Positions 625 to 64,000 of a stretch of 64,000 nt of DNA are shown piece by piece; positions within the stretch are counted from its first letter, which is position 1; every line of letters starts with the position of its first letter. The position numbers were made by a program, and so were the translations under genes. This DNA is from Spirochaetales bacterium (GTDB taxonomy: Bacteria; Spirochaetota; Spirochaetia; SZUA-6; JAFGRV01). The notes beneath the pieces were generated by a model that had not been told where the DNA came from, searched no databases, and worked only from the letters and a program-made list of their open reading frames with translations. The DNA lies in the NCBI GenBank assembly GCA_016937215.1, contig JAFGWI010000009.1, positions 1,703 to 65,702 of the forward strand, read 5' to 3'.

Positions 625-1340
625 GGGCGTTGCCTTTTGAAGAGAACTTCAAAAGGCCGGGCTTTCCAGGGCTCCGCTTTGCTTCGAAGTCCTCGGCGCT
701 AAAAAATAGCGCCTCCGGGCTTCAGCCCTCCTTTTTTGAAAAAAAGGAGGGCTGTCCTTCCAATCCCTAACGCCAGAAGCAATACCCTTGGTTCTTCCAA
801 AATCATCGCATCTCAAAAAACAGCACCACCTTCCTTTCCGCGCCAAAATGCTAATTTACTATTTTATAGATAAATAGATAAGGGGCCAGGAAATGCTGGC
901 ACCCTTATTTGCCTCAAAGGATGAAAGCCTTTTATTAAGAACAATTTATTATGGATGAAAAGGGGTTATTTGTTTCTGTAATAGCTGAAACAGGTTTTTT
1001 AACAGGAAGATGGCAAAAAAAAAAGGCAAAAAAAAACGGTATGCCTGGATGTCTTGGTGCATACCGTCTCATGTACATTCGATGTTAAACAGCGCTGTTA
1101 ATAATATTTTCGGCCAGGGGTTTAAAAACATTAAGTGAGTTTTCTTTTTTTTAGCGATTTTTATCAAATAATTCCGCATTCATTCATTGCTGGCCAGGAT
1201 CTATCGCCTTAGGGATTGGAGAGGCAGCAAGGCCTTTTTTCAAAAAGGACTTGCTGAAACCCGCAGGCGCGATTATTCGCGCCGAGGATTTCGAAGCAAA
1301 GCGGAGCCGCGGAAAGCCCGGCCTGCCTTGGGTTTAAGGC
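625..1340. repeat. Palindromic repeat element copy A. A forward unit (625-774) and an inverted unit (1204-1340) flank a ~430-bp A-rich core.
   Basis: It shares the motifs GGGCGTTGCC, GGCCGGGCTTTCC, CCTCGGCGC..AT.GCGCCTCCGGG, TTTTGAAAAAA and CAATCCCTAACGC with loci at 19043, 27749 and 49352. The right arm is the reverse complement of the left arm. Confidence 0.6.
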
Positions 1341-1439
1341 TGGTGAAGCACTAAAAAACTCAGCAACTTACTGTTGATTAAAAAAATTGAAGGCAGGCAA
1401 GGCCCGGATAATTCAATTATTTCAGACTTTTCCTGAAGC

Positions 1440-18888: not shown

Positions 18889-19042
18889 TCTCCTTTAGCT
18901 TATTTTATCAAAGAAAAAAACTTTAATCAAACCCTAATCATGTGAGCCATGTTATTAACATTGGCCAAATCAAATCAATTAAGCACAAACATAGAATGGC
19001 TTTTAACAGAAAACAAAATGGCCTGTTTCAAAGTGACTGTTC

Positions 19043-19451
19043 GGGCGTTGCCTGCTGCCACAGCCCTATTCACTCCCGACAGCCTTTTTTAATAAAAATG
19101 TTCAGATGCTGAATAGCAAGCGGCAGCAGGCCAGGCTTTGCGCGGCTCCGCTGTTGCTTCGAAAGCCTGGAGCGCGAAATAATCGCGCCCCAGGCTTTTT
19201 GTGAATGTTTTTTGAAAAAAACATTCACCACCGCTCCAATCCTTAACGCTTTACACCAGATGTCCTTGCCAGGCTTAAAGCGCCATCCCTGTTTCACGCG
19301 TTAGGGATGGTTGCCATGGCTTGCCATTTTTTCAAAAATGGCAAGCCAAAGCGTTTTCGCGCGGATTATTTCCGCGCGAAAACCTTCGAAGCGCCTAGTG
19401 GAGTGGCAACAAGCCCGGCCTGAAAGCCCCCGGGCTTATCAGGCAACGCCC
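19043..19451. repeat. Palindromic repeat element copy B. A 409-bp imperfect palindrome with a perfect 12-bp terminal inverted repeat GGGCGTTGCCTG / CAGGCAACGCCC.
   Basis: The two arms are inverted copies of the same ~190-bp unit and meet at CAATCCTTAACGC...GCGTTAGGGAT. GC-rich hairpins. The copy sits between motB and fliL. Confidence 0.75.
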
Positions 19452-19507
19452 AACAAGATCCACAGAACAAATAAACAGAAAGCCGGCTTTCACAAGAAGC
19501 AGGAATT

Positions 19508-20251
19508 CTATAAATGCCCTGATGTCAAAACAACAATATCAACCCGGCGGTTCAGAGCCCTTTGCTCGGCTGTACTTTCATCCATGGAATAGGGAACCGT
19601 GTCGGCAAAACCAGCCACCTGAAACTTTTTCTCGTCCACGCCATACTGCACAAGATAATGCAGCACATTGGTGGCGCGGGCTGTTGAAAGCTCCCAGTTG
19701 GAAAAAAACTCATCCCCAGGATCAGTGGGAATGGAATCAGTATGGCCTTCTATCCTGAATTTGGTTAAGGGGTCTGAAAGGTCAGGGTCATTAAAAAGCT
19801 TGGCCAGATTCTGGAGAACATCCCGGGTTTCCTCAATATTCACATCAGAGGACCCCACATCAAAGAACAAATCCCCGGCAAGGGAGATGATTAATCCCCG
19901 CTCATCCTCCTTTACCCTGAGTTTTTGGGTCTTTTGGGCCATTTCAAACAAGGCCTTGGCCCGTTTCCTTGCCTTATCCAATGCCCGCCCCTGCTCCATG
20001 GAAGGCAGGCTCATGATGGTGTTGCCAAGTTCAGCCAGTTTTCCTTCCTGCAGAGTGTTTCCGCCGCGCATTGTTCCCAGTCCCTGAAACGCGGCCAGAA
20101 TCATTCGAAGTTCGCTGCCGTCAATTTCCGCTGTGGTGAACATCATGATAAAAAAGGTCAAAAGCAGGGTGGTCATGTCTCCATAGGTCAAAAGCCAGTC
20201 AGGAGCACCCTCAGAGACCTTTTTTTTCTTCTTTTTGCGTTCTTCAGCCAT
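19508..20251 (-). CDS. motB: Flagellar stator protein MotB (OmpA-like C-terminus).
   Basis: TM plus plug region. C-terminal OmpA/peptidoglycan-binding motif (NWELSTARA..NRRVDIV). Confidence 0.9.
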   Translation of the reverse strand: MAEERKKKKKKVSEGAPDWLLTYGDMTTLLLTFFIMMFTTAEIDGSELRMILAAFQGLGTMRGGNTLQEGKLAELGNTIMSLPSMEQGRALDKARKRAKALFEMAQKTQKLRVKEDERGLIISLAGDLFFDVGSSDVNIEETRDVLQNLAKLFNDPDLSDPLTKFRIEGHTDSIPTDPGDEFFSNWELSTARATNVLHYLVQYGVDEKKFQVAGFADTVPYSMDESTAEQRALNRRVDIVVLTSGHL

Positions 20252-27748: not shown

Positions 27749-28074
27749 GGGCGTTGCCTGCCTCCCCTTCGGTCCGGCAGGCCGGGCTTTCCGCGGTATA
27801 AAATCCTCGGCGCGATTTTTTCGCGCCTCCGGGTTTCAGGCGCCCCTTTTTGAAAAAAGGAGCGCCTGCCGCTGCAATCCCTAACGCGCTACAGCGGGAT
27901 AATCGATTCACTATCCGCTTACGCTGTTATAATGGGTTAGGGATCGGAGCGATGCTTCGTCTCTTTTTCAAAAGTGACGAAGCAAAGCGTTTTTGGACGG
28001 ATAATTTCCGTCCAAAAACCTTCGAAGCGAAAGCGGAGTCGCCTAGAGCCCGGCCCGAGCCCCTTAAGGAATGC
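27749..28074. repeat. Palindromic repeat element copy C (326 bp). The left unit ends CAATCCCTAACGCGC and the right unit is inverted with a diverged terminus.
   Basis: Same motif set as copies A, B and D. Located in the fliG-fliH intergenic spacer. Confidence 0.7.
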
Positions 28075-28237
28075 CATTTTATATTTTGACATTTCCCATG
28101 ATATACAAAGTTTCCCCACCTATCAGGGTAGCTTAATAATTGGACAAATGCAAAATGGCCGTTCCTTGAACTAAAAAAAACGCGATTTTACGCGGCCGGG
28201 CAACCCCCGAATAACAATCACAAATCAAATACAAACA

Positions 28238-49351: not shown

Positions 49352-49505
49352 GGGCGTTCCCTGCCTCCCTTTCAGTCCGGCAGGTCGGGCTTTTCAGCAC
49401 TAGGCCTGTCGGCTCCGGAAGCCTCGGCGCGAAATTATCGCGCCTCCGGGTTCAAACCAGCCAATTTTGAAAAATTGGCTGGTTTTGCTTACAATCCCTA
49501 ACGCG
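49352..49505. repeat. Palindromic repeat element copy D. A single unit beginning GGGCGTTCCCTG and ending CAATCCCTAACGCG.
   Basis: Shares the full motif set with copies A-C. Lies in the divergent region upstream of mraZ. Confidence 0.6.
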
Positions 49506-49681
49506 TCTCTCGCGGAAAAAAAGCAGACACCGCGCCCTGCGGCACTATTCTGGCCAAAGATAGCAAAAAGAAAGCTGCCAAAAGCCAAAAAGGACAGCCC
49601 TCTATTTCAACACAGGAGAAACAACTTGACTTTCTTCAAGCGAAAAGTTATTTTGAAACTCGTAAATAAAGGAGACAAGCT

Positions 49682-49969
49682 GTGTCAGTTTATCGCGTAT
49701 ACTTCAAATGGAAAAACAAGGATATTCATCTCACTGCCAAAAACCTTGATCTCACCCACCCCTATTTCGTTTCCATAATGGATCTGGTATTTCAAAAAGA
49801 ATCGGCCATCATCATCAATCCTCAGGACGATGAAATCCAGAAAGCCTTTGGCCAGACTAAAAACCTGATGCTGCCCTTTAACAGCGTAAACTATATTGAA
49901 GAGCTAAAAGAAGAAGAAACCAAAAAAGTCATGCCCTTTTCACTGATCAACGAAAAAGATTCAGAATAA
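49682..49969 (+). CDS. Hypothetical small protein (95 aa).
   Basis: GTG start preceded by AAAGGAG at 7-nt spacing. Convergent with tlyA and overlaps it by 23 nt. No family recognised. Confidence 0.4.
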   Translation: MSVYRVYFKWKNKDIHLTAKNLDLTHPYFVSIMDLVFQKESAIIINPQDDEIQKAFGQTKNLMLPFNSVNYIEELKEEETKKVMPFSLINEKDSE

Positions 49970-51696: not shown

Positions 51697-53226
51697 CTAC
51701 CGGGCATATTCCAATATCCTGGTTTCACGAATAATTGTAACCTTGATTCGTCCCGGATATTTCAATTCATTCTCAATACGCTTCGCAATATCCTTGGCCA
51801 TTTGCCGTGCCTGGGCATCGTCCACTGCTTCGTTGTTTACGATAATACGCAGCTCACGTCCAGCTTGAATGGCATAGGTTTTTTCAACACCTTCAAAGCT
51901 CTCGGCGATTTTCTCAAGATTCTCTAAACGCTTTAGATAATTATCAAGAGTCTCTCGACGCGCGCCTGGCCTTGAAGCAGAAATCGCGTCGGCAATCTGA
52001 ACAATAACCGACTCGATGCAAATCGGCTCCACATCATTATGATGCGAACCAATAGCATTAATGACACGGGGATCCTCACCCAGTTTTTTGGCTAATTCCA
52101 TCCCGATTTCAGCATGATTTCCCTCATTATTGGTTTCAATACCTTTGCCAATATCATGAAGAAGCGCGCCTCGTTTGGCAATATTCACATCTGCACCAAG
52201 CTCCGAAGCAATCATGCCCGCAACTACAGCTACCTCTTTTGAGTGAAACAATACATTCTGGCCGTAACTTGTTCGGAAGTACAAGCGCCCCAGGGCCTTA
52301 ATGCCTTCAGGCCTGAAATTATGAATACCTAACTCAAAAAGAACCTTTTCACCTTCTTCATAAATCTTTTGACTGATTTCCTTGGTCACTTTTTGAACCA
52401 CTTCTTCAATTCGTGCCGGATGAATCCGTCCATCGGAAATCAAACGCTCGAGCGATGTTTTAGCGATTTCCTTACGTATCGGGTCAAAGCATGAAATAAC
52501 TACGGCCTCAGGTGTATCATCGATGATAATATCCACACCTGAAAGTGTTTCCAGGGTACGGATATTTCGCCCTTCACGCCCGATTATTCGACCTTTCATT
52601 TCATCATTTGGCAGACTGACCGAAGTCACTGCCATTTCCGAACTGACATCTGTCGCAATTCGCTGCACTGTAGATACAATGATTTCTCTGGCTTTTTTTT
52701 CAGCCGTTATTTGCGCATCATGTTCTATCCTGTTAATAAGAATTTGCGCGTCATGCTTGGCTTCGTTCTCCAGGCTTTGAATAATTAAATCTTTTGCTTC
52801 TCCAGCAGAAATTCCAGAAATCTTTTCCAGTTCATGTCGCCATGTATCTAGACTCTTGGATACTTCCTCTTCCCTTAATGTTAATTCTTTCTCACGGTCT
52901 GAAATGCCTCTTTCCTGATCCTCTACATGAGACATTTTTCTTTCTAGATTTTCCTCTTTATTGATTAACCGTCGTTCGAATCTTTGCAGTTCGTTACGGC
53001 GTTCTCGTGTTTCCCTCTCCAGCTGATTTCGTTCTTTTATTATCTGGTCCTTTGTTTCCAAAAGGGCCTCACGTTTTTTTGCTTCAGCTTCTTTAATGGC
53101 TTCCTGTATAAGCCTCTGAGCTTTTTGCTCAGAGGACGAGAGTCGAAATCTGGCTACTAGCCATCTTATAATCCAACCTAGAACAATACCGATGAGAGAA
53201 AGAAGAAATCCAATAAGAATGTTCAT
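51697..53226 (-). CDS. rny: Ribonuclease Y.
   Basis: N-terminal TM, coiled-coil, KH domain ([11 protein letters not shown]) and HD domain (HDIGK). Confidence 0.95.
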
Positions 53227-53323
53227 CGTCTTTCCTCCACATCCTAGTATAAATTACAATATAAAACGTTTTTACTAAAATTGTCAAGAATAAATAATAT
53301 CTTCTTTTAAATGACAGGATTTA

Positions 53324-56300
53324 TTAGGATTTGATATGAAGTTTCTCAAATATTTTGAAAATATCTACCGGTTCATTTCCAATAAATGAAAAAAAGAGGT
53401 AAGAGGCTTTAAGATTATACATAACAGGCAAAAAAACCGCTGAAGCAACATATTTTATATCCATCTCAGAAAATTTATCATTGAAAATTTCAGTTTTTTC
53501 TGGAGATTGATTCAATACCAGTATATGCCTTTGGGCAAAAATAGCCTGATAAATTTCTTCATTAGTATCAAATACCAAATTATGATGATCGCGATTTGAA
53601 AAACCCACAGAAAACACTGGCTTAAATTGATTTTCTTCAAGACTGAGAACAGCCGCACATATAGAAGCCAGATCGCGGGAAAGCTGTATAAGGGATTTGG
53701 TGATAACCAATTCGTCGTCCTTTTTTCCCAGTGCGCTTATATAACCATCCAAATCAATACCTTTATTTGACAGACCTATTTGAATGAATTTTTTTTGATG
53801 CTTGAATGGACGGTAGATTTTTTCATCATCAACAGCTTCATTGATCACTCGACTTGTTGTTTTGGTTTCAACCGCTTCCACAAGGCTTTTAAATTTAGGA
53901 TTAAACTTAGACAAAGAATGGCTGCCTGCAGTCTTGGCAACCTTATAAACACCCTTTTCTTCAATTATCGCCTTAAAATCTTCACTTTTTGACTCCAATA
54001 TATAACTTAAGGGATAAATATTGATAACTTTTCGTTTCATTGCATTTGAAACTTGTGGAAAGTTTAGTAATTTTATTAAAATATCACTTGCCGGTTCATG
54101 GTTTTTATTGTCATTTCTCAGATATAGCCGCTTTTGCGAATTCTTAATTAAGTAATACTTTCCTGCCTGCTCAAAAAAGTACTGGGACTCTTCATCAATA
54201 ACAGGCTCCAGCTCTTCCATTGATTCAGATTCCTTCGCCTGCCTATCGATCACTTCAAGCCCTGACAGGCCAGCCGAGACCACTGACTCTGATACTGATG
54301 CGCTTTCCTCCAGATCTCGACTCATGTCTTCAAATAAACCCTGAAGTCGATCACTCTGTTCTTGGGTCATCATGATGTCTTTATCATCATATTCTTCCAA
54401 AAGCTCAGGTATTTCATTGTCTTCAATCTCATCAAGATCTTCAAGGAGCTCACCTTCTTCAAGGGCTTTTACTTCCTCAATAATAGTTGGCTTTTTTAAG
54501 CTAGTATTTGCTTGTTTTTCTACCAGGTCTGCATCCTCAAGTTCTTCAAGCTCTAAAAGCTCATCAGATTCCTCAAAACTGTTATCTGCTTGTAAATCTT
54601 CAAGCTCCTGCAATTCTTCAAGACCATCATCCATTTCAGCCAACAATTCATTTTCAGTTTCTTCTTCAAGGCTCCGGGCCTCAGAAACTTCATCCAGCTC
54701 CTCCATTTCCTCCAGGTCTTCTATCTGGTTGGCTTTTTCCAGCTCTGCATTTGAAACATTACGTTTATCTTCTTCAAGCCTATCTTCAGAATCAGGATCT
54801 ATACTCGCCTTATCACGGCTATTGACTTTATTAGTTTTTTCTAAAATACCATCTCGACTCGCCTCAGCAAGCTCAAGATCATCGCCATCTAAGACTTCTG
54901 TTAAATCATCGTGTTCTTCATGGTTTAACTTATTTTCTTCAGGTGTCGCTATTCGGACTCCATCATCAGCTGATTCGATTTCTTCAAGATCTTCGATTTC
55001 ATCGAGATCTTCATTTTCCTTATCCAGATGATTTGAAAGAAGCTGCACATCCTCATCTGCATTAAGCTCGGCAACATCTATTTCCTCAAGCTCACCAGTC
55101 GCACTCTCTTGATCGTGGGAAGATTCAAGTTCCCTTACTTCATCGAGCTCATCAATATCTTCATTTGCTCTATCCGTTTCATTTACAGAAATTGATCCTA
55201 CTTCATTATTCTGAACAGAATTCTGACCTTTGGTTATTGATTTTTCACTGCCATGTTGTATCAAATTTTGTTGCGATGGTAAAACAAATTGACCGTTTTT
55301 CAATGCCTTGGCCAACATACTTTGAATCTGCCCAATGGCATCATCTCCAATGGAACTCTTAGCTGCCTTTTTTTCTAATATAATCAGAATTTCGTCCCAA
55401 CTCTTATCAATAAGATTATTGACCAATTCTTTTTTGGCTTTACCTACGCGGCCGATCCCCTTTTTTAGCTCTTTCTTAATTTCAGCCTCACGAGCAACCA
55501 TTTCCCTTTTCCATTTTTTCCAGTTCACTTCGATATCAGCTTCAATAAAGGTATTGAGCAACTCGATTTGAAAGCGCTTTATCCGGCGAGAAACTATCAG
55601 AACCGAATCCTCTTTAATATTGAATATAAAAAAGAAAATCAAATAAATAGTTACCAGTAGAATGATATTGATTAATAATTTAATGGAATCTGCAAGGCGA
55701 AAAAGGTTTTGCTTTAATAAAATACTGATAATGCCATAGTTTTCATCATGCACATTAAACAATAAAAAGGAACTGGCTGATTCTTCATCAACGGCATTTT
55801 CAAGAACATCAACATAAGCTTCGGTAGAAGAATTTCGGTTCCACATTTCTTTTATCAATGGAACCAATTCCTCATTTACCGAAAGAGGCAGATTCAAAAC
55901 CAATCCTTCATCTTCAACCAGGACCAAATTTTGAGCAAGGGAAATATCATTTTCATTAACTAAAAATCTCTGTAATTCCTTATAATTGATATAAATAAGA
56001 GCCGTTCCCTTGTAAATGTCAAATTCATCGATCATGGGAAAGCAATAAATAAATCGATTGTTATATCCGTCTAGGTAGATATAAGGCTCATCAGATTTGG
56101 CAACAATCAAACGTGAATCAGGAACTCTTTCACCAAGTTGGTCATAATTATAATATACAATTTCACGATCAGTACGAGATTTAATATCACCATCCCTGGT
56201 ACTGAAATGAATCGTTTTCCCTTTTTCACCCAGCAATCTGATAAACAGAAAGTCTGGCATGTTGTTCTTCAACAACTCAAATTTTTCAGACCTTCTAAAT

Positions 56301-56584
56301 ATGTCCTCTGAAGATTTTCGCTGATCAGAAACATAAGCAGAAATGACAAAAGGATTGGCCAGTATGTTTTGAAATAATTCGATGTTATTTTTATGATACA
56401 ATCGAACCTCATCCGCAACAAGTAAAGTTCGCTTCAAATATTCATTTCGCAAATTCTGATTAAAAAATTGTGTTTCTATGACATTAAAAAGATTAATGGA
56501 AAAAAACAACAAATATAGGGTAAATAGGAGTATTGTAAGAAATAGACTTAATGCTATTTTTAAACCTTGATTCATGAACCTCAA
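53324..56584 (-). CDS. Giant two-TM membrane protein. It has a ~270-aa extracytoplasmic domain, a ~400-aa acidic D/E/L-rich low-complexity linker and a ~300-aa C-terminal globular domain. Function unknown.
   Basis: TM1 at aa 10-33 and TM2 at about aa 300-320. Repetitive EELEDLEE/DELDEVxE stretches. No catalytic motif recognised. Confidence 0.7.
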   Translation of the reverse strand: MRFMNQGLKIALSLFLTILLFTLYLLFFSINLFNVIETQFFNQNLRNEYLKRTLLVADEVRLYHKNNIELFQNILANPFVISAYVSDQRKSSEDIFRRSEKFELLKNNMPDFLFIRLLGEKGKTIHFSTRDGDIKSRTDREIVYYNYDQLGERVPDSRLIVAKSDEPYIYLDGYNNRFIYCFPMIDEFDIYKGTALIYINYKELQRFLVNENDISLAQNLVLVEDEGLVLNLPLSVNEELVPLIKEMWNRNSSTEAYVDVLENAVDEESASSFLLFNVHDENYGIISILLKQNLFRLADSIKLLINIILLVTIYLIFFFIFNIKEDSVLIVSRRIKRFQIELLNTFIEADIEVNWKKWKREMVAREAEIKKELKKGIGRVGKAKKELVNNLIDKSWDEILIILEKKAAKSSIGDDAIGQIQSMLAKALKNGQFVLPSQQNLIQHGSEKSITKGQNSVQNNEVGSISVNETDRANEDIDELDEVRELESSHDQESATGELEEIDVAELNADEDVQLLSNHLDKENEDLDEIEDLEEIESADDGVRIATPEENKLNHEEHDDLTEVLDGDDLELAEASRDGILEKTNKVNSRDKASIDPDSEDRLEEDKRNVSNAELEKANQIEDLEEMEELDEVSEARSLEEETENELLAEMDDGLEELQELEDLQADNSFEESDELLELEELEDADLVEKQANTSLKKPTIIEEVKALEEGELLEDLDEIEDNEIPELLEEYDDKDIMMTQEQSDRLQGLFEDMSRDLEESASVSESVVSAGLSGLEVIDRQAKESESMEELEPVIDEESQYFFEQAGKYYLIKNSQKRLYLRNDNKNHEPASDILIKLLNFPQVSNAMKRKVINIYPLSYILESKSEDFKAIIEEKGVYKVAKTAGSHSLSKFNPKFKSLVEAVETKTTSRVINEAVDDEKIYRPFKHQKKFIQIGLSNKGIDLDGYISALGKKDDELVITKSLIQLSRDLASICAAVLSLEENQFKPVFSVGFSNRDHHNLVFDTNEEIYQAIFAQRHILVLNQSPEKTEIFNDKFSEMDIKYVASAVFLPVMYNLKASYLFFSFIGNEPVDIFKIFEKLHIKS

Positions 56585-56643
56585 ACCATTGTCAGGATAT
56601 TCTTCTTATCTCTTATCGACACAATTTTTAGGATACTAAATAA

Positions 56644-56673
56644 ATGAAAAGCTTTATTTTTTAGGCTTTTCAT
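56644..56673 (-). terminator. Perfect 9-bp stem hairpin ATGAAAAGC-N12-GCTTTTCAT followed on the minus strand by TTATTT. Candidate terminator downstream of the rplQ-to-201-aa unit.
   Basis: Read directly from the sequence. Confidence 0.3.
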
Positions 56674-56940
56674 TAGATTGAAAATGCCAGGCATAAATAT
56701 ATCGACAATTTTCCTTCACCATGATTGTTATCACATTTAATCGACAGTGAATTCAGGCAATTGCTAAGATTTTTTAGAGTTCGGAAATTGCGGCATACAA
56801 AAAAACCTTTCTGTTTCGCGTTATATATGAAATTTCAATTTCAGTGCGGAGAATGAATTTAAAAACCCTATAAAATCGACAGCACTAACAAACTTCATAT
56901 TTTGACAAAACAAGTCCTATATCTCTCAATATCTTGATTT

Positions 56941-57546
56941 TTAAAAAAAAAGCGAGATCTTTGAAACAAAACAAACTATCCACACAAGAATAATAATATA
57001 GAAATAAAATAAAAAGGCAAAATTTAAGCGGAAAATCTTATTTGTATTCATGGCTCGATGGTTGTCCCAGAGATTCAGCAACAAATTATCAACATACTTG
57101 AAAAAGTCAACTTTTTTTGACTTTTTCTGAATGCTTTGAAACATCTGATTCATAAATTCCAAGGAATTTTGAATCATCAAACCAATAGGGCCGTGTAACG
57201 CAACTGGCTGAGCAAGACTAAAATTTGAAACTAAAATCAGACTATCAAAAAGAAGGGCCTTATAAATGCCCTTAACAAGGGCACCTGTCGTAACAGGAAA
57301 ATGAAGAATTCTTAAAAAAACACGCCCATTTGGTATACTGAGATTAAGAATAACAATAGCCCCTGTAAATAAAAAGAGTCTTAACAGCGATATTTTTTGC
57401 TTAAAAAATATATTTAGCAGAAGATAAAAGACAGTAATTATCAATAATATCAAAGAATCTGAGCTAAGTATAACTGGAATAATAAAGAAACTATGAATAA
57501 AAAGAAAAGGCTGACGTAGATCATCAGCCTTCATTATTTGATTCAT
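56941..57546 (-). CDS. Hypothetical polytopic membrane protein (201 aa).
   Basis: 5-6 hydrophobic helices. Sits 14 nt downstream of rplQ. Possibly ECF-transporter T-component-like, but too short to say. Confidence 0.45.
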   Translation of the reverse strand: MNQIMKADDLRQPFLFIHSFFIIPVILSSDSLILLIITVFYLLLNIFFKQKISLLRLFLFTGAIVILNLSIPNGRVFLRILHFPVTTGALVKGIYKALLFDSLILVSNFSLAQPVALHGPIGLMIQNSLEFMNQMFQSIQKKSKKVDFFKYVDNLLLNLWDNHRAMNTNKIFRLNFAFLFYFYIIILVWIVCFVSKISLFF

Positions 57547-57560
57547 ACGCTTTTCAGAAA

Positions 57561-57977
57561 TTATCCGATTTTTGGCATCTGTTGGTTTTCCGCTTTTTTT
57601 CTTCGTTTTTTGATTCGATCTTCACGGTCAACTAATTCCAAAAACACCATTTCTGTTGCATCAGCAGGTCTTTGTCCAATTTTCAAAATACGTGTATAAC
57701 CACCAGCGCGTTCATTAAAACGCGGTGCAACGTCTGTGAACAGTTTGGCAACCATATTTTTTGAATAAAGTGTTTTTGCAGCCATTCTTCGATTGTGCAC
57801 AGAATCCACCTTAGCTCTTGTAATAAGTTTTTCAGCAGTTTTCCGGATTTCTTTTGCTTTAGTTATGGTTGTTTTTATTCTCTCATATTTTATTAATGCC
57901 ATAACCATATTTCTATGCAACGACTGTCTATGGGCATAATTACGACCTAATCTTTTAAAACCTAGTTTATGTTTCAT
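57561..57977 (-). CDS. rplQ: 50S ribosomal protein L17.
   Basis: Conserved L17 sequence. Confidence 0.95.
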   Translation of the reverse strand: MKHKLGFKRLGRNYAHRQSLHRNMVMALIKYERIKTTITKAKEIRKTAEKLITRAKVDSVHNRRMAAKTLYSKNMVAKLFTDVAPRFNERAGGYTRILKIGQRPADATEMVFLELVDREDRIKKRRKKAENQQMPKIG

Positions 57978-59022
57978 CGCTCTTTTCCTTATCTAAATCT
58001 TGATTCTTAAGAGTTCTTAGCACGCTATAGTCAACCATTCCAAGACTCAAGTTCCATTCGGACAATTTTTCTTTAATTTCCTGTAAAGACTTTTTGCCGA
58101 AATTTCTGGTTTTTACCAGATCTTCTTCAGACTTTTTGGTCAAATCACCTATTGTTCTAATGTTCGCATTTTTCAAACAATTACTTGACCGAACGGATAA
58201 TTCCAATTCCTCAACAGGAGTTTCTAAAAATTTCCTGATTCGTTCTTCCTCATCATCCTTATCATCTTCTCTCATAATTTCATTTTCATCAAAATTGATA
58301 AAAACGGTAAAATGTTCTTTTGCGATTTTAGCAGCTTCGGCCAGGGCATCTGGAGGCGCTATACTTCCATCTGTCCACAGTTCAATACTCAATTTATCAT
58401 AATCTGACCGTTGTCCAACTCTAGCGTTTTCCACATTATATCTTACTTTTCTAATAGGTGAAAATATAGCATCAATAGGTATTGTTCCTATTGTTTCTAT
58501 GTGTTCAGCATTTCTTTCAGCTGAGACATATCCTCTTCCTAAATCGATTTGAATTTCAAATTCAACATGGGCTTTTTCAGATAGTGTTGCTATATGCAAT
58601 TCTGGGTTTACAACTTTAATTTTGTTGCTTTTTTCAATATCCTTTGCTGTAAAATCGCAAGGGCCTTTTAATTCAACCGAGATAGTTTCACTTTCTACTT
58701 CGTCTAAAAGAAATAATTGAATTTGTTTTAAACAATTGATGATTTCAGGTGTGTCTTCAACAACTTCCGGTATGGCTTCATATTCACTGGATACAACCAT
58801 ACTAGTACCATCATCATTATAATGTGTTATTCGAATCGCAGTAATTGCATACCCCTGAATGGATGATAACAGCACACGACGCAAAGTATTACCAACAGTA
58901 ACCCCATATCCCCGTTCAAAGGGATATGCTGTGAATTTACCATAAAAGGGATCTACCTCTTTGTGATCAAATGTTATGCCTTTTGGTCTTTTAAATCCCT
59001 TTAATAAATTTTTAACAGCCAT
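57967..59022 (-). CDS. rpoA: DNA-directed RNA polymerase alpha subunit.
   Basis: N-terminal dimerisation domain plus C-terminal alpha-CTD. Confidence 0.95.
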   Translation of the reverse strand: MAVKNLLKGFKRPKGITFDHKEVDPFYGKFTAYPFERGYGVTVGNTLRRVLLSSIQGYAITAIRITHYNDDGTSMVVSSEYEAIPEVVEDTPEIINCLKQIQLFLLDEVESETISVELKGPCDFTAKDIEKSNKIKVVNPELHIATLSEKAHVEFEIQIDLGRGYVSAERNAEHIETIGTIPIDAIFSPIRKVRYNVENARVGQRSDYDKLSIELWTDGSIAPPDALAEAAKIAKEHFTVFINFDENEIMREDDKDDEEERIRKFLETPVEELELSVRSSNCLKNANIRTIGDLTKKSEEDLVKTRNFGKKSLQEIKEKLSEWNLSLGMVDYSVLRTLKNQDLDKEKSDET

Positions 59023-59032
59023 TAGCTCTCCC

Positions 59033-59668
59033 TTATTTTGAATAAAGTTCGACGATTAATTGCTCTTTAATATGTGCCAAGTCTGTCACATCAGATCTTC
59101 TTGGTAATGAAGTGACAGTTCCTATCATATTATCAGGATCAATATTTAACCATGGTACTATACCAGATTTTGAATACTCTTTTAAAGCCTCTTTAATGAC
59201 TATCAATTTCTTGCTGCTATCACGTACTTCGATTTTATCGTTTTCTTTAACATGGTATGAAGGAATATTTACACGTCGTCCATTAACATAGATATGTCCA
59301 TGCGAAACAATTTGCCTTGCCATTTTTCGAGAAGGTGCGAATCGCATACGATATACTATATTATCTAACCGACTTTCTAATAATCTGATTAGATTTTCAC
59401 CAGTAATACCTGTTTGTCTTGCAGCATGGTTAAAGACAATCTTAAATTGCTTTTCCAGCATTCCGTATAATCTTTTTAATTTCTGTTTTTCACGTAACTG
59501 CACACCGTAATCAGATATTTTTTTCATACGTGTTCGAGGTCCTCTACCTGGAGGCCCCATTTTTTTTGTAATGGGACATTTGGGTCCCTTACATCTATCA
59601 CCCTTTAAAAATAATTGAGCTCTTTCTGCTCTGCATAATCTGCAACTAGGTCCCGTATATCTCGCCAT
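59033..59668 (-). CDS. rpsD: 30S ribosomal protein S4.
   Basis: MARYTGPSCRLCRAE N-terminus. Confidence 0.95.
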   Translation of the reverse strand: MARYTGPSCRLCRAERAQLFLKGDRCKGPKCPITKKMGPPGRGPRTRMKKISDYGVQLREKQKLKRLYGMLEKQFKIVFNHAARQTGITGENLIRLLESRLDNIVYRMRFAPSRKMARQIVSHGHIYVNGRRVNIPSYHVKENDKIEVRDSSKKLIVIKEALKEYSKSGIVPWLNIDPDNMIGTVTSLPRRSDVTDLAHIKEQLIVELYSK

Positions 59669-59687
59669 AATTTAAACTCTCCTTTGA

Positions 59688-60077
59688 TTATACTCTTCTG
59701 CTCTTTTGAGGTCGACAACCATTGTGCGGTATAGGGGTGATATCCTTTATGGATCGTACTCTTATTCCAAGAGCTCCCAATGCTCTTATGGCAGATTCTC
59801 GGCCAACACCTGGGCCTTTGACATAAACATCGACTTCTCTGAGTCCATGTTCTACAGCTCTTGATGCTGCAGATTCAGCCGTACTTTGAGCAGCAAAGGG
59901 TGTAGATTTTTTAGCACCCTTAAAACCTAAACCACCAGCAGAGGCCCAGGAAATGGCGTTACCTTTTTGATCAGTAACAGTTACAATAGTGTTATTAAAT
60001 GTAGCCTGGATATAAACACATCCATAGGGAATATTCTTTTTTTTATCTTTTTTAGTCTTACGCTTAGCCAACTTCAA
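59688..60077 (-). CDS. rpsK: 30S ribosomal protein S11.
   Basis: Conserved S11 sequence. Confidence 0.95.
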
Positions 60078-60092
60078 TTTCCTCCCAGAAAA

Positions 60093-60458
60093 TTACTTCT
60101 TCTTACCTGCTACAGTTTTTGCTCTTCCTTTTCGTGTTCGAGCATTTGTTTTTGTGCGTTGTCCTCTAACAGGCAAACCTCGTCTATGTCTTAAACCACG
60201 ATTACACCCAATATCCATCAATCGTTTGATATTTAAGGCAATTTCTGTTCGAAGTCGCCCTTCCACCTTATATTCACTTTCGATTACAGTTCTAAGATTA
60301 TTGATTTCATCAGCAGCTAAATCATTAATCTTAGTTTTTGGGTCTATTCCAGTTTTAGAACAAATGTCCATTGCTGAAGTTCTGCCTATTCCATAAATAT
60401 ATGTTAATGCAATATCAACATTTTTATTTGGTAAGTCTACACCTGCTATACGTGCCAT
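60093..60458 (-). CDS. rpsM: 30S ribosomal protein S13.
   Basis: [11 protein letters not shown]-terminus. Confidence 0.95.
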
Positions 60459-60469
60459 TCATTACTCCT

Positions 60470-60582
60470 TAGCGTTGTCTCTGCTTGTGTTTTGGGTTTT
60501 GACAAATAATTCTTAACACACCGCGACGTCTAATAATTTTACATTTTTCACAAATTGGTTTTACACTAACTCTTACTTTCAT
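60470..60582 (-). CDS. rpmJ: 50S ribosomal protein L36. As given, it is interrupted by a 1-nt deletion in an A-run (A4 to A3) after codon 15.
   Basis: The ATG at 60582 gives [15 protein letters not shown], then the frame is lost. The -1 frame continues [22 protein letters not shown]-stop. It is too short to appear in the ORF track. Confidence 0.6.
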
Positions 60583-60593
60583 ATAAAAACCCT

Positions 60594-61916
60594 CTATAAA
60601 TTTCTTGATTTGATTCGGCCTTTTTTCAAGAGACCATCATGATGATGCATTCGTAAATGCCCTTCGATTTGGGACATGGTATCCAGATCCACTCCAACCA
60701 GAATCAGCAATGATGTTCCACCCAGTAACATGGCTACTGAATGAGGAAAATTAAACACAAGCGTAATTACTGTTGGAATAATCGCAATAAATGCCAAGAA
60801 TAGTGAACCTGGTAAAATTATCCTCTGTAGAATTCGGTTAAGATAACCTTCCATTTTTTCACTTCTTATCCCTGGAATTGAACCACCATGTTCTCTTATA
60901 TTTTTGGATATTTCATAAGGATTTAAAGTTACTTGCGTATAAAAGTAACTAAAAAATATAATCATTAAAGCATAAATAATATTGTAAGGCAGTTTATCCC
61001 AGGCTAAAAAGGATACCATGCCTTGTAGCCAATCAATATTCTTGAAACTTTGAGCTATTTGAATTGGAAATGTCAAAACTGCGCTTGCAAAAATAACCGG
61101 AATTACTCCTGAAGGATTGATTTTAAAGGGAAGATAAGTATTTTGTGCTCCATATACTTTTCTTCCAACAACCCGTTTCGCATAGTGAACTGGAATTTTT
61201 CTTTGGCCCTGTTGTTCATAGATAACTAAGGCAATAACAACAACGAAAATAAACATTACAACAAAGAGGAACACTGGATTTAAATTTGAATTGGGATTTC
61301 TAATTTCTTCTACTAATGTAACAACGGCTTGCGGCATTCGCGCTACAATACCAGCAAAAATTAGAATTGAAATACCATTTCCAACACCTCTATTTGTTAT
61401 CTGCTCACCCAACCAAACCAAAAATATTGTTCCCGTTGTTACAGTCAAAACCGCAATCAATCTAAATTGCAACTCATTCATACCAGTTAAGGCATTGGGT
61501 ATACTAAGAGGCAAGGTGATAGATGCCATGGTTTGCAAAATACATACAGGTATTGTCAAATAACGAGTATATCTTTGAATTTTTTTCTTGCCGCCCTCTT
61601 CTTCTGAAATCTTTTTTAATTTCGGAAAAATAATAGTTAATAAATTCATTATAATGGACGTTGTTATGTAAGGCATAATCCCTTGCATAAAAATAGAGAC
61701 ATTACTAAAAGCACCACCTACGAAGAAATCTATAAAATCAAAGATTCCTCCAGCTCCAGATCCTTGGTTAAAATATGCAATAACAGCGTTTCTATCTATG
61801 CCGGGAATAGGAATGAATACACCTAATCGAAAAATTATTAACGCAAAAATTGTAAATAAAATTCGATTTCTCAGGTCTTTGATTCGAAAAATATCAACAA
61901 GGGAGTTACTAGCCAT
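60594..61916 (-). CDS. secY: Preprotein translocase SecY.
   Basis: 10-TM SecY. Followed directly by rpmJ. Confidence 0.95.
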
Positions 61917-62389
61917 TATTTTTCCGCCTCTTTCTTAGCTTCTTCTAAAATTTCTACAGCTCCACCTGCTTTTTCAATTTTATCCTTTGCGGATTTTGAT
62001 ATCTTATCAATCTTAACATTCAATTTGATAGTTAATTCACCGCGGCCTAAAATCTTCACAGGATAGCGATTAGCATGGATCAATCCCATTGCTTTAAGAC
62101 TGTCTTTGGTTATGCTGTCGCCAGCCTTAAAAACACCAAGATCTTCAATGTTAATAATGTTGTAAGTTTTTTTGAAAGGACAGTTAGAAAAACCTCTTCT
62201 CGCTACGCGTCGATAAAGGGGCATTTGTCCGCCCTCAAAGCCTGGTCTAACGCCACCGCCAGATCGCGCATTCTGACCTTTATCACCACGACAGGCTGTT
62301 CCGCCATGTCCTGTACCTACACCTCTTCCAATTTGTTTTTTATTTCTATTAGCACCTTTTGGAGCTAATAAAATTATTTTTTCAACCAT
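61916..62389 (-). CDS. rplO: 50S ribosomal protein L15.
   Basis: Gly/Arg-rich N-terminus typical of L15. Confidence 0.95.
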   Translation of the reverse strand: MVEKIILLAPKGANRNKKQIGRGVGTGHGGTACRGDKGQNARSGGGVRPGFEGGQMPLYRRVARRGFSNCPFKKTYNIINIEDLGVFKAGDSITKDSLKAMGLIHANRYPVKILGRGELTIKLNVKIDKISKSAKDKIEKAGGAVEILEEAKKEAEK

Positions 62390-62405
62390 TAGTCTCTCCT
62401 ACTTT

Positions 62406-62600
62406 TTATAACTCGGTAACTTCAACTAAATGAGAAATACAGCTTACCATTCCCATAATTGTGGGCGTTGCTTCTTTTTTGACAGTTCGATCAATTTTCT
62501 TTAACCCCAATGCCATTGCTGTAGCCCGTTGATTAGGTTTACTTCCAATTATACTTTTTATTAATTTTATTTCAATCTGTTTTGCCATTGTTAACCCCAC
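62406..62600 (-). CDS. rpmD: 50S ribosomal protein L30. The true start is probably the MAKQ four codons inside the ORF.
   Basis: MAKQIEIKLIKSIIG...RATAMALGL. Confidence 0.85.
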   Translation of the reverse strand: MGLTMAKQIEIKLIKSIIGSKPNQRATAMALGLKKIDRTVKKEATPTIMGMVSCISHLVEVTEL

Positions 62601-63097
62601 ATCTCACTAATCTTTTTGCCTCGGTTTTGTGCGATTTCTTTAGCACTCATAAGATTTTCCAAACCATTAAAAACAGCTTTTAAAATATTCATCGTATTTT
62701 TAGACCCAAGGGATTTGCTTAAAATATCACTTACCCCTACCGCTTCAAGAGCTGCTCTTACTGGACCACCGGCAATAATTCCTGTACCAGGTGCAGCAGG
62801 TTTAAGCATAACTTTAGCACTTTTGTATTCTCCGTAAATCAAATGCGGAATGGTATTTTTTTTCAAATTTATACTTATAATATTTCTCTTTGCTTTATCA
62901 AGACTTTTTTTAATAGCCTCAGACACATCATTTGCTTTGCCAAATCCTAGTCCGATCTTGCCCTTTTGATCACCAACAACAACAAGTGCTGAGAATGAAA
63001 ATCGGCGTCCACCTTTAACAACTTTGGCTACTCGATTTAATCGAACAAGCTTTTCAACAAATTCTTTTTCCATTTTTGCTTCTTTGCGATTATCCAT
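62591..63097 (-). CDS. rpsE: 30S ribosomal protein S5.
   Basis: Conserved S5 dsRBD and C-terminal domain. Confidence 0.95.
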
Positions 63098-63106
63098 ATG
63101 AGCCTC

Positions 63107-63466
63107 CTAAAATTCGATTCCCGATTTTCTGATTGAATCTGCAATAACTTTTACTACACCATGATATTTATAACCATTTCGATCGAAAATTAAGGTCGAT
63201 ATTTTCTTGTCTTTTAAGCGTTTACCCAAAATCTCGCCCAACTTGGCTAATTCTTTTTGATTATTTTTTATACCCCTCGTTTCTTCTTCTGTATTAGAAA
63301 TTGAACACAGGGTATTTCCTTTTGTATCATCTATTGCTTGTAAATAGGTATATTTGTTACTTTTGAAAATGCTTAATCTAGGTCGTTCTGCCGTACCTGA
63401 AATTTTTTTTCTGATACGTACTTTCCTTCTATTTCGCCGATTAATTTTATCTTTTATTCTGTTCAT
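63107..63466 (-). CDS. rplR: 50S ribosomal protein L18.
   Basis: Conserved L18 sequence. Confidence 0.9.
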   Translation of the reverse strand: MNRIKDKINRRNRRKVRIRKKISGTAERPRLSIFKSNKYTYLQAIDDTKGNTLCSISNTEEETRGIKNNQKELAKLGEILGKRLKDKKISTLIFDRNGYKYHGVVKVIADSIRKSGIEF

Positions 63467-63475
63467 AGTGCTATC

Positions 63476-64000
63476 CTATTTGACTCCTGTCTTTCCAACT
63501 TTCTTACGAACCAGTTCATTTTCGTATCGAATACCTTTACCTTTATAGGGCTCTGGCGGTTTATATGCTCTTATTTCAGCACACATCTGGCCAATTTGTT
63601 GTTTATTAATACCAGATACAATAATCTTTGTGTTTGCATCAACACTAACAGTAATACCATTAGGTATGGGATATTCTACTGGGTGGGCGAATCCAAGATG
63701 TAATATAAGATTGTTACCTTTAACCTCAGCTTTATATCCTACTCCGATTATTTGAAGATTGCGTGAAAAGCCCTGAGAAACCCCAATTATCATATTATTG
63801 AGAAGATTCCGATACAAACCATGCATACTCTTAGCTCGTTTACTTTCATTTAAACGATCAACCATCACTTGATTTTCCTGAATATTAAATTTAACTTCAG
63901 GTTTATAGTCCTGTGATAATTTTCCCTTTGGCCCTTCAACATTCATCAAATTATTATTTATATTGATCTTTACTCCAGCGGGTATTTTAATTGGTTTAAA
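63476..64000 (-). CDS. rplF: 50S ribosomal protein L6. The N-terminus runs off the window edge, and the frame stays open to 64000 as ..KPIKIPAGVKININNNLMNVEGPKG.
   Basis: Conserved L6 sequence. The ORF track starts at an internal TTG. Confidence 0.9.
   Translation of the reverse strand, partial: FKPIKIPAGVKININNNLMNVEGPKGKLSQDYKPEVKFNIQENQVMVDRLNESKRAKSMHGLYRNLLNNMIIGVSQGFSRNLQIIGVGYKAEVKGNNLILHLGFAHPVEYPIPNGITVSVDANTKIIVSGINKQQIGQMCAEIRAYKPPEPYKGKGIRYENELVRKKVGKTGVK

Follow-up and report, generated by a model that had tools for sequence, protein, structure and literature searches.

Organization of the repeat units

We describe a family of structured repeat units present in a 64-kb stretch of DNA (hereafter, the window) from the metagenome-assembled genome (MAG) of an uncultured "Spirochaetales bacterium", whose nearest MotB relatives are 71-74% identical. 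The whole window was searched by BLAST with the element, with a profile hidden Markov model and with a covariance model run with its filters off. Exactly seven homologous units were found, the profile and the filter-off covariance-model searches being in agreement and yielding no further copies; a three-block sequence pattern matched eight times in the window, against 0.00 matches expected in shuffles. The units, labeled A to G and ranging from 139 to 275 nt, are arranged as three convergent pairs (625-1405, 19043-19451 and 27749-28208) and one solo copy (49352-49504). In each pair the 5' ends face outward, the 3' ends being separated by 432, 48 and 46 nt, respectively. An initial annotation of this DNA had listed four loci carrying the repeat; all four are present and intergenic, but their real content is seven units rather than four simple copies. 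Two of them had been drawn too short (625-1340 and 27749-28074, corrected here to end at 1405 and 28208); units B and F carry inserts of 60 and 130 nt, respectively, in their first hairpin.

The consensus fold of the unit comprises a 5-bp terminal stem, P0 (GCGTT/AACGC), with a hairpin, P1, placed right after its 5' strand; it further includes a junction stem and, farther in, the two hairpins P3 and P4. Two sub-types (I and II) differ in the P3 arm. The 409-bp composite at 19043-19451 joins unit C (type I, 19043-19249, plus strand, 207 nt, 109.3 bits) to unit D (type II, 19298-19451, minus strand, 154 nt, 117.6 bits) through a spacer of 48 nt (19250-19297). Unit C holds an insert of ~70 nt in P1, its terminal stem pairs GCGTT (19045-19049) with AACGC (19245-19249), and its inner hairpins are P3 at 19162-19198 and P4, with a TTTTGAAAAA loop, at 19201-19228; in unit D, P4 lies at 19317-19348 and P3, which is terminator-like on the gene-sense strand, at 19353-19383. 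The outer ends of this composite form the perfect 12-bp terminal inverted repeat (TIR) reported initially, with GGGCGTTGCCTG at the 5' end of unit C (19043-19054, plus strand) and CAGGCAACGCCC at the 5' end of unit D (19440-19451, minus strand). The four blocks singled out at the same time (GGCCGGGCTTTCC, a GGCGCGA-AT-TCGCGCC hairpin, a hairpin centred on TTTTGAAAAA, and CAATCC(C/T)TAACGC) are likewise present and conserved between loci. The description of the element as a palindrome with arms of ~190 bp had to be revised, its arms being 207 and 154 nt long and merely 60% identical.

The second tight pair consists of unit E (type I, 27749-27887, plus strand, 119.7 bits), at 139 nt the shortest in the window, and unit F (type II, 27934-28208, minus strand, 275 nt, 110.2 bits for a match spanning 27928-28214), which carries an AT-rich P1 insert of ~130 nt. 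The 46-nt spacer between their 3' ends (27888-27933) is not conserved with that of the C/D pair when compared by eye, apart from a short ATCCC/GGGAT match. In the third pair, unit A (type I, 625-773, plus strand, 149 nt, 132 bits), which begins with 5' GGGCGTTGCC and ends with ATCCCTAACGC 3', faces unit B (type I, 1206-1405, minus strand, 200 nt, 123.7 bits), with an insert of ~60 nt in P1. The 432 bp between the 3' ends of A and B (774-1205) are AT-rich, and neither an open reading frame (ORF) of at least 100 aa nor a repeat was found in them. Unit G (type I, 49352-49504, plus strand, 153 nt, 137 bits) stands alone in the divergent intergenic region between mraZ and a DUF1820 gene.

Identity between the arms of a pair is 60% for C/D, 49% for E/F and 72% for A/B, while comparisons between loci (73% for B/E and 66% for D/F) give higher values than C/D or E/F. 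Both tight pairs consist of a type I unit facing a type II unit; the 409-bp element is a pairing of two sub-types and not a fold-back duplication.

Conserved fold and covariation

RNAalifold returned the same fold for the seven window sequences and for a set of 23, made of these seven plus 16 from public genomes. The junction stem pairs GGG.CT...GGGG with CCCC...AT.CCC, and P4 is tipped by an invariant TTTTGAAAAA, although outside the window this invariance was partly imposed by our search patterns. An invariant core (5' GGGCGTT, TCGGGCT and ATCCCTAACGC 3') forms the terminal and junction stems. Among the 23 sequences 28 of 42 pairs were changed on both sides; standard pairs filled 93.3% of cells, compared with 72.8% after shuffling and 37-51% when partners were slid, and double-change cells numbered 179 where 52 were expected. 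The terminal stem P0 is present in all of the 47 complete instances, including 26 metagenome matches whose 5' half lay outside the search pattern. It has only two variants, both compensated and both in the window: GGGCCTT/AAGGC in unit B and GGGGGTT/AACCC in unit F.

The predicted folding energies of the units are very low (-65 to -104 kcal/mol), and those of the sense and antisense strands are similar. Among ~1,790 stem cells, 93% of them strictly Watson-Crick, we counted 19 G.U and 23 A.C pairs (~1% each), one conserved T.G position being left out. No strand can thus be assigned to the structure, since it folds with similar energy both ways and G.U is not enriched over A.C.

These results bear on whether the units function as RNA, either as multi-copy small RNAs (sRNAs) or as cis-acting structures in mRNA under selection site by site, which could, for instance, serve for stabilisation, processing or attenuation and thereby set differential expression in flagellar and division and cell wall (dcw) operons. 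We regard this as unlikely, though with a real chance of being correct. The very strong covariation, which includes long-range junction pairs, and the conservation of loop and junction nucleotides speak for it. In functional RNAs, the transcribed strand usually shows G.U at a level of several per cent; here G.U does not exceed A.C on either strand, and this argues against a function as RNA.

The units are enlarged relatives of Flavo-1

The sequence had not been recognised in the initial annotation, and at first sight Rfam gave the same answer. Run directly at gathering thresholds it produced no match anywhere in the window, permissive scans (E<=10) returned noise only, the Flavo-1 model (RF01705) had no match at E<=10 within 18900-19600, and ARAGORN detected no tRNA-like, tmRNA or other known RNA. 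The Flavo-1 model aligned to just one window unit, E (27776-27894, minus strand), in a co-linear and full-length manner with 15.4 bits against a gathering score of 42 bits; the window units stay far short of that score.

The link to Flavo-1 came to light only by way of metagenome intermediates. The three-block pattern retrieved family members in Treponemataceae genomes, and a looser two-block pattern retrieved 28 metagenome loci. A covariance model (R1) constructed solely from window and Treponemataceae units matched 26 of these 28, which fall into a long group (139-267 nt, in Treponema contigs) and a minimal group (85-104 nt, in ocean and lake metagenomes). R1 recovers 14 minimal sequences, scoring 25.6-60.3 bits in hits that cover the whole model (E about 4e-5 to 2e-15). 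Ten of these were scanned with Rfam, and all ten exceeded the Flavo-1 gathering score of 42 with 46.8-65.1 bits, their matches running opposite to our arbitrarily chosen unit orientation; this link is qualified in that the search pattern used to retrieve the minimal loci included two of the blocks.

The conserved core, GCGTTAGGGAT...AGCCCGACC, corresponds to the core of Rfam Flavo-1 when read from the opposite strand. In each of the seven units, ATCC(C/T)TAAC(G/C)C (in unit B, ATCCCTAAGGC) and GG(C/T)C(G/A)GGCT stand in the right order and pairing. These are the reverse complements of the Flavo-1 blocks GCGUUAGGGAU and AGCCCGACC, which flank a variable hairpin and pair with each other through a short junction stem. 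The seed alignment of Weinberg et al. holds the blocks GCGUUAGGGAU ... AGCCCGACC, in many copies per flavobacterial genome and with one Treponema denticola member, and its authors described a few Flavo-1 members in Spirochaetes in 2010 (PMC2864571). Because R1 retrieves accepted members while the Rfam model stays below threshold, the window elements are enlarged, sub-threshold relatives of Flavo-1, a known but functionally uncharacterised motif. A family that had been taken as novel is therefore matched, at a distance, by a known one; its sequence looked unfamiliar because the Rfam model does not reach the window units.

With Flavo-1, whose range is Bacteroidota plus a few members in Spirochaetota, the window units share the blocks, the junction stem, a covarying terminal hairpin of variable length, many copies per genome and the lack of an assigned function. 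They differ from it in being 2-3.5 times longer (139-275 nt versus about 76-100 nt), in the addition of P3 with its two sub-types, in the frequent P1 insert of 60-130 nt, and in their convergent pairing. Moreover, neither the closing stem GCGTT/AACGC nor P1 is covered by the Rfam/Weinberg model, which ends before P1 and the 5' strand of P0. The Rfam model misses every P3-containing unit, and it also misses long units in the related loci L001-L016, L036 and L043 (L numbers are our handles for loci retrieved from other assemblies).

Mosaicism, TD modules and cargo genes

Several features indicate that parts of the units are exchanged. In one genome, discrete variants of P1 and of P3, each with a perfect stem, are found in every one of the four possible combinations. 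P1 accepts between 0 and 130 nt of unrelated sequence across copies (60-130 nt, AT-rich, in those window units that have an insert). A P1 domain of ~125 nt is inverted between copies, L027 5028-5292 and L028 5793-6059 matching L037 1570-1833 with 90.6% identity on the minus strand compared with 75% on the plus strand, which suggests flipping by recombination between hairpin arms. The tolerance of such inserts and inversions in P1 argues against a function as RNA.

In the Treponemataceae MAG A13_2001-4, modules of a second Rfam motif, TD-2 (RF03162), sit immediately next to the 3' end of Flavo-1-like units, with 7 instances at 6 loci (L001 2288-2409; L002 156-257; L005 4084-4203; L013 233-349; L014 926-1045 and 6941-7044; L016 2270-2370). 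They lie on the same strand as the Rfam Flavo-1 orientation, are repeated one to three times and are followed by a conserved tail. The unit thus heads an array with TD-2 hairpin modules, which makes the two orphan motifs Flavo-1 and TD-2 components of one mosaic repeat. TD-1 and TD-2 are multi-copy motifs of Treponema denticola with no known function and an ambiguous strand (RF03155 and RF03162; PMC1950547). The window units resemble them in being multi-copy, hairpin-rich and of unassigned function, with modular stems and strand ambiguity, and differ from them in their own sequence and fold. Neither motif matched in the window, and TD-2 reached its gathering score only beside units in the Treponemataceae MAG. 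Separately, two tandem TD-1 matches of 71.9 bits each were observed at L036 3075-3403 (minus strand), on a Treponema-like metagenome contig that also contains Flavo-1-like units.

Pairs of units were also found around accessory genes in two other Treponema contigs. At L027 5028-8376, convergent units with 5' ends outward enclose a frameshifted MmeI-type restriction-modification gene, itself located between convergent ABC-F and amidase genes, and at L035 3006-4852 units in the same arrangement enclose a Fic_N plus Fic gene pair. This geometry mirrors that of the window composite 625-1405 with its AT-rich interior of 432 bp, and such pairs may represent cassette mobilisation or capture. Of note, the unit at L027 8183-8376 is degenerate, with half of its P4 hairpin (CTTGCCTCAAGTTTTGAAAAA) tandemly triplicated.

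Single accessory genes between inverted units raise the question of whether the units are attC-like, structure-dependent recombination sites that delimit gene cassettes for a tyrosine recombinase. Integrons are known in Treponema denticola, the termini ...CCCTAAC and GTTAGGG... resemble the core sites RYYYAAC / GTTRRRY of attC, and in the units, too, structure is conserved while sequence and length vary. However, attC sites are single hairpins of 57-141 bp, found in direct orientation after each cassette and next to intI, while the units have several branches, occur inverted or singly, and are scattered within housekeeping (flagellar and dcw) operons. No integrase was found next to any unit, and the GTT/AAC order within the unit is reversed relative to attC. 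We consider this explanation the least probable of those weighed here, and would be surprised if it held.

Genomic setting and distribution

Of the three composites, one separates motB from fliL, one separates fliG from fliH, and the third, 625-1405, has a convergent gene on either side; the solo unit lies between mraZ and the small DUF1820 gene. As proposed initially, the units are always intergenic, none of the seven overlapping a supported gene, and since ~91% of the window is covered by ORFs, four independent intergenic loci would arise by chance with a probability of ~1e-4. They are also richer in GC (0.47-0.63) than the window (0.42), and the five short ORFs called over them have no Pfam support, in keeping with their initial description as artefacts. 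The 5' flank of the units is T-rich here. The gene adjoining unit G encodes 95 aa (PF08850, 47 bits) and spans 49682-49969 on the plus strand; a longer overlapping ORF (49467-49778) has no family support. The same gene is convergent with an FtsJ-like methyltransferase gene, whose 3' end it overlaps by ~23 nt.

No unit was present in ~62 kb of syntenic flagellar loci from three relatives, in which the fliG-fliH gap measures 15-70 bp, compared with 543 bp in the window, nor in 42 kb of T. socranskii. At one rumen Treponema locus the unit was kept in all strains tested, including a 98% relative. Independent short-read assemblies, those of the window organism among them, end inside or at units: one contig ends 84 nt after motB (L017), another starts at unit G (L053) and two start inside a unit (L055 and L058). 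These breaks indicate a high copy number and repeats that fragment spirochete MAGs. Viral contigs gave 0 family matches, with no phage association, and a literature search on MITE or REP elements of spirochetes (see below for both classes) returned nothing relevant. As a separate observation, a 4.5-kb contig binned as Bacteroidales (L008, JAFGUD010000496.1) begins inside a type II unit closely like D and F; its isolate name, ZodW_maxbin.137, suggests a Zodletone spring sample, and it may be a mis-binned spirochete contig.

Composites of this kind could be classical miniature transposable elements with inverted repeats (MITEs), that is, internally deleted copies of an insertion sequence (IS) with a DDE transposase, in which the units serve as long structured ends and movement is by cut-and-paste in trans. 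The composites are 409-781 bp long, non-coding and intergenic; the TIR at 19043/19451 is perfect over 12 bp, with similar outward 5' ends at 625/1405 and 27749/28208, and the pairs around cargo genes in L027 and L035 would fit as well. Nevertheless, we found no target-site duplication at the corrected ends of the three composites (625-1405, 19043-19451 and 27749-28208) or of the solo unit (49352-49504). A candidate at E/F, an 11-13-bp direct repeat ATTT(T)ATATTTTG, was rejected, the right copy lying inside unit F's own P1 insert and the true end being at 28208. Solo units are common and have a terminal complementarity of only 5 bp (GCGTT/AACGC), the arms are 49-60% identical and belong to two sub-types, the stems co-vary rather than decay, and neither the window nor 476 kb of related loci yielded a related transposase or a cognate autonomous IS. 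We therefore judge this origin to be very improbable.

The likeness to MITE, Correia and BIME elements noted initially holds only in part. The units are non-coding, structured, multi-copy and without a transposase, and their architecture is akin to that of BIME, REP and MITE elements; like the Correia elements of Neisseria they are short and intergenic, show TIRs in composites and can fold when transcribed. Correia elements duplicate TA, and a MITE or Correia reading is weak because the units lack target-site duplications, the solos have no long TIR and the stems show covariation, not mere decay.

A probable identity as DNA repeats and not as genes for sRNAs

On balance, and with modest confidence, we read the units as non-autonomous, mosaic DNA repeats comparable to repetitive extragenic palindromic (REP) sequences, bacterial interspersed mosaic elements (BIMEs) and REP doublets forming hairpins (REPINs), rather than as sRNA genes. 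We favor this because their pairing is strand-symmetric, their orientation is mixed, relatives lack them, assemblies break at them, their modules re-assort and pairs of them bracket cargo genes. In one MAG, 7 units are co-oriented after a stop codon and 8 are divergent from a start codon.

REP, BIME and BOX elements are extragenic, GC-rich, palindromic, mosaic repeats (see the review PMC3184786). Like those of proteobacteria (REP, BIME and REPIN) and like BOX of Streptococcus pneumoniae, the units are extragenic, richer in GC than their flanks and palindromic, and they are built of mosaic modules and form inverted doublets. They share with REP, BIME and BOX their location inside operons and after stop codons and a structure conserved on both strands. 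Unlike REP, BIME and REPIN, they are several-fold larger and branched, with four helices and an invariant three-way core. A REP is a single hairpin of 20-40 nt with a conserved 5' tetranucleotide, and no GTAG-type tetranucleotide occurs in the units, nor was a REP-associated tyrosine transposase (RAYT; Y1/HUH type) gene detected in the 476 kb searched.

From the fold, homology, insertion-like distribution, strand symmetry and mosaicism observed here, we infer how such repeats might propagate. The units would fold on either strand, as single-stranded DNA or cruciforms, and a trans-acting, structure-specific protein would recognise the invariant junction. They would spread and recombine as DNA within a lineage and come to rest between genes, either singly or in convergent pairs whose 5' ends point outward; in other contigs such pairs bracket accessory genes. 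Their perfect, interchangeable stems could result from a templated process acting on DNA or from exchange among copies. As a secondary effect, read-through in the flagellar operons would place very stable structures in the mRNA, probably punctuating it by attenuation, processing or 3'-end protection.

The last point touches again on a function as RNA. At both operon sites, immediately downstream of motB and downstream of fliG, the type II P3 hairpin and the GCTTTGG after it resemble a terminator when the gene-sense strand is read. Several units, taken in the Rfam orientation, are positioned 29-95 nt upstream of a start codon. Flavo-1 matches coincide with some 5' transcribed regions in F. psychrophilum (PMC9723704), and with transcripts in Leptospira. 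Nevertheless, the F. psychrophilum transcriptome places Flavo-1 matches "indistinctly in sense or antisense" of transcribed regions, many others lying outside them (PMC9723704). Here, both orientations with respect to flanking genes are represented among the units, which also form inverted pairs, and the syntenic operons of relatives function without them. An sRNA gene with its own promoter and terminator was considered and rejected: the 5' boundary is sharp, the upstream flank next to it is not conserved, and promoter- and terminator-like matches do not exceed those in shuffles. We do not think that the units are sRNA genes in their own right.

Other results weigh against the interpretation as DNA repeats. 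A tblastn search that used IS200 TnpA and E. coli RAYT as queries and covered 476 kb of related loci detected no HUH/Y1 transposase, and no recurrent neighboring protein was found beside the units. Neither were target-site duplications present, as described above, nor did three routes lead to a strain-level empty site: for the window lineage, MotB identity to relatives does not exceed 74%, and the other assemblies of this lineage represent the same strain; in rumen Treponema every strain carries a unit at the locus, and T. socranskii shows no synteny there; and the L027 locus has no relative above 79% identity. The one pointer to mobility is thus the patchy distribution. The long-range covariation of the junction stem and the invariant loop are also expected of a functional RNA, and the scarcity of G.U could partly reflect a recent spread of perfect-stem master copies. 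Besides TTTTGAAAAA, the conserved blocks in the external sample were in part imposed by the search patterns. Finally, Rfam types Flavo-1 as an sRNA (Gene; sRNA), and some instances are transcribed (PMC9723704).

Several points appear to be undescribed in the sources we checked: the large form of the units in spirochetes, their closing stem, their arrangement in pairs and around cargo genes, the TD-2 fusion and the evidence for a DNA repeat. A repeat that looked novel is now linked to an orphan Rfam family whose function has been unassigned since 2010, its model is extended by the closing stem and P1 hairpin in all 47 complete instances examined, and large spirochete variants are seen to be missed by current Rfam models. 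The sequences give evidence that Flavo-1 and the treponemal fused TD-2 modules behave as mosaic DNA repeats and not as sRNA genes. If this is true, several "sRNA" annotations in Bacteroidota and Spirochaetota would need re-typing, and the missing mobilising enzyme would be worth seeking. In practical terms, the units fragment short-read assemblies and yield spurious ORF calls.

A bolder proposal, which we hold to be decidedly doubtful, is that the Flavo-1 junction (GGGCGTT / TCGGGCT / ATCCCTAACGC) might act as the recognition module for a recombinase or transposase system, structure-specific and hitherto undescribed, that Bacteroidota and Spirochaetota have in common. Flavo-1, TD-1 and TD-2 would then be modules of one class of mosaic DNA elements and not sRNAs, convergent pairs would mobilise or capture cargo such as restriction-modification and Fic genes, and the stems, perfectly complementary yet interchangeable, would be made by a templated process at the DNA level.

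Base composition at the right end of the window

The region 53000-64000, which is without repeat units, has a GC content of 0.31-0.39, compared with 0.41-0.50 over 1-53 kb. It contains a ribosomal cluster (secY/rpsM/rpsK/rpsD/rpoA/rplQ) and an ORF of 1086 aa (53324-56584) without a Pfam match. The drop in GC may reflect a chimeric MAG contig.

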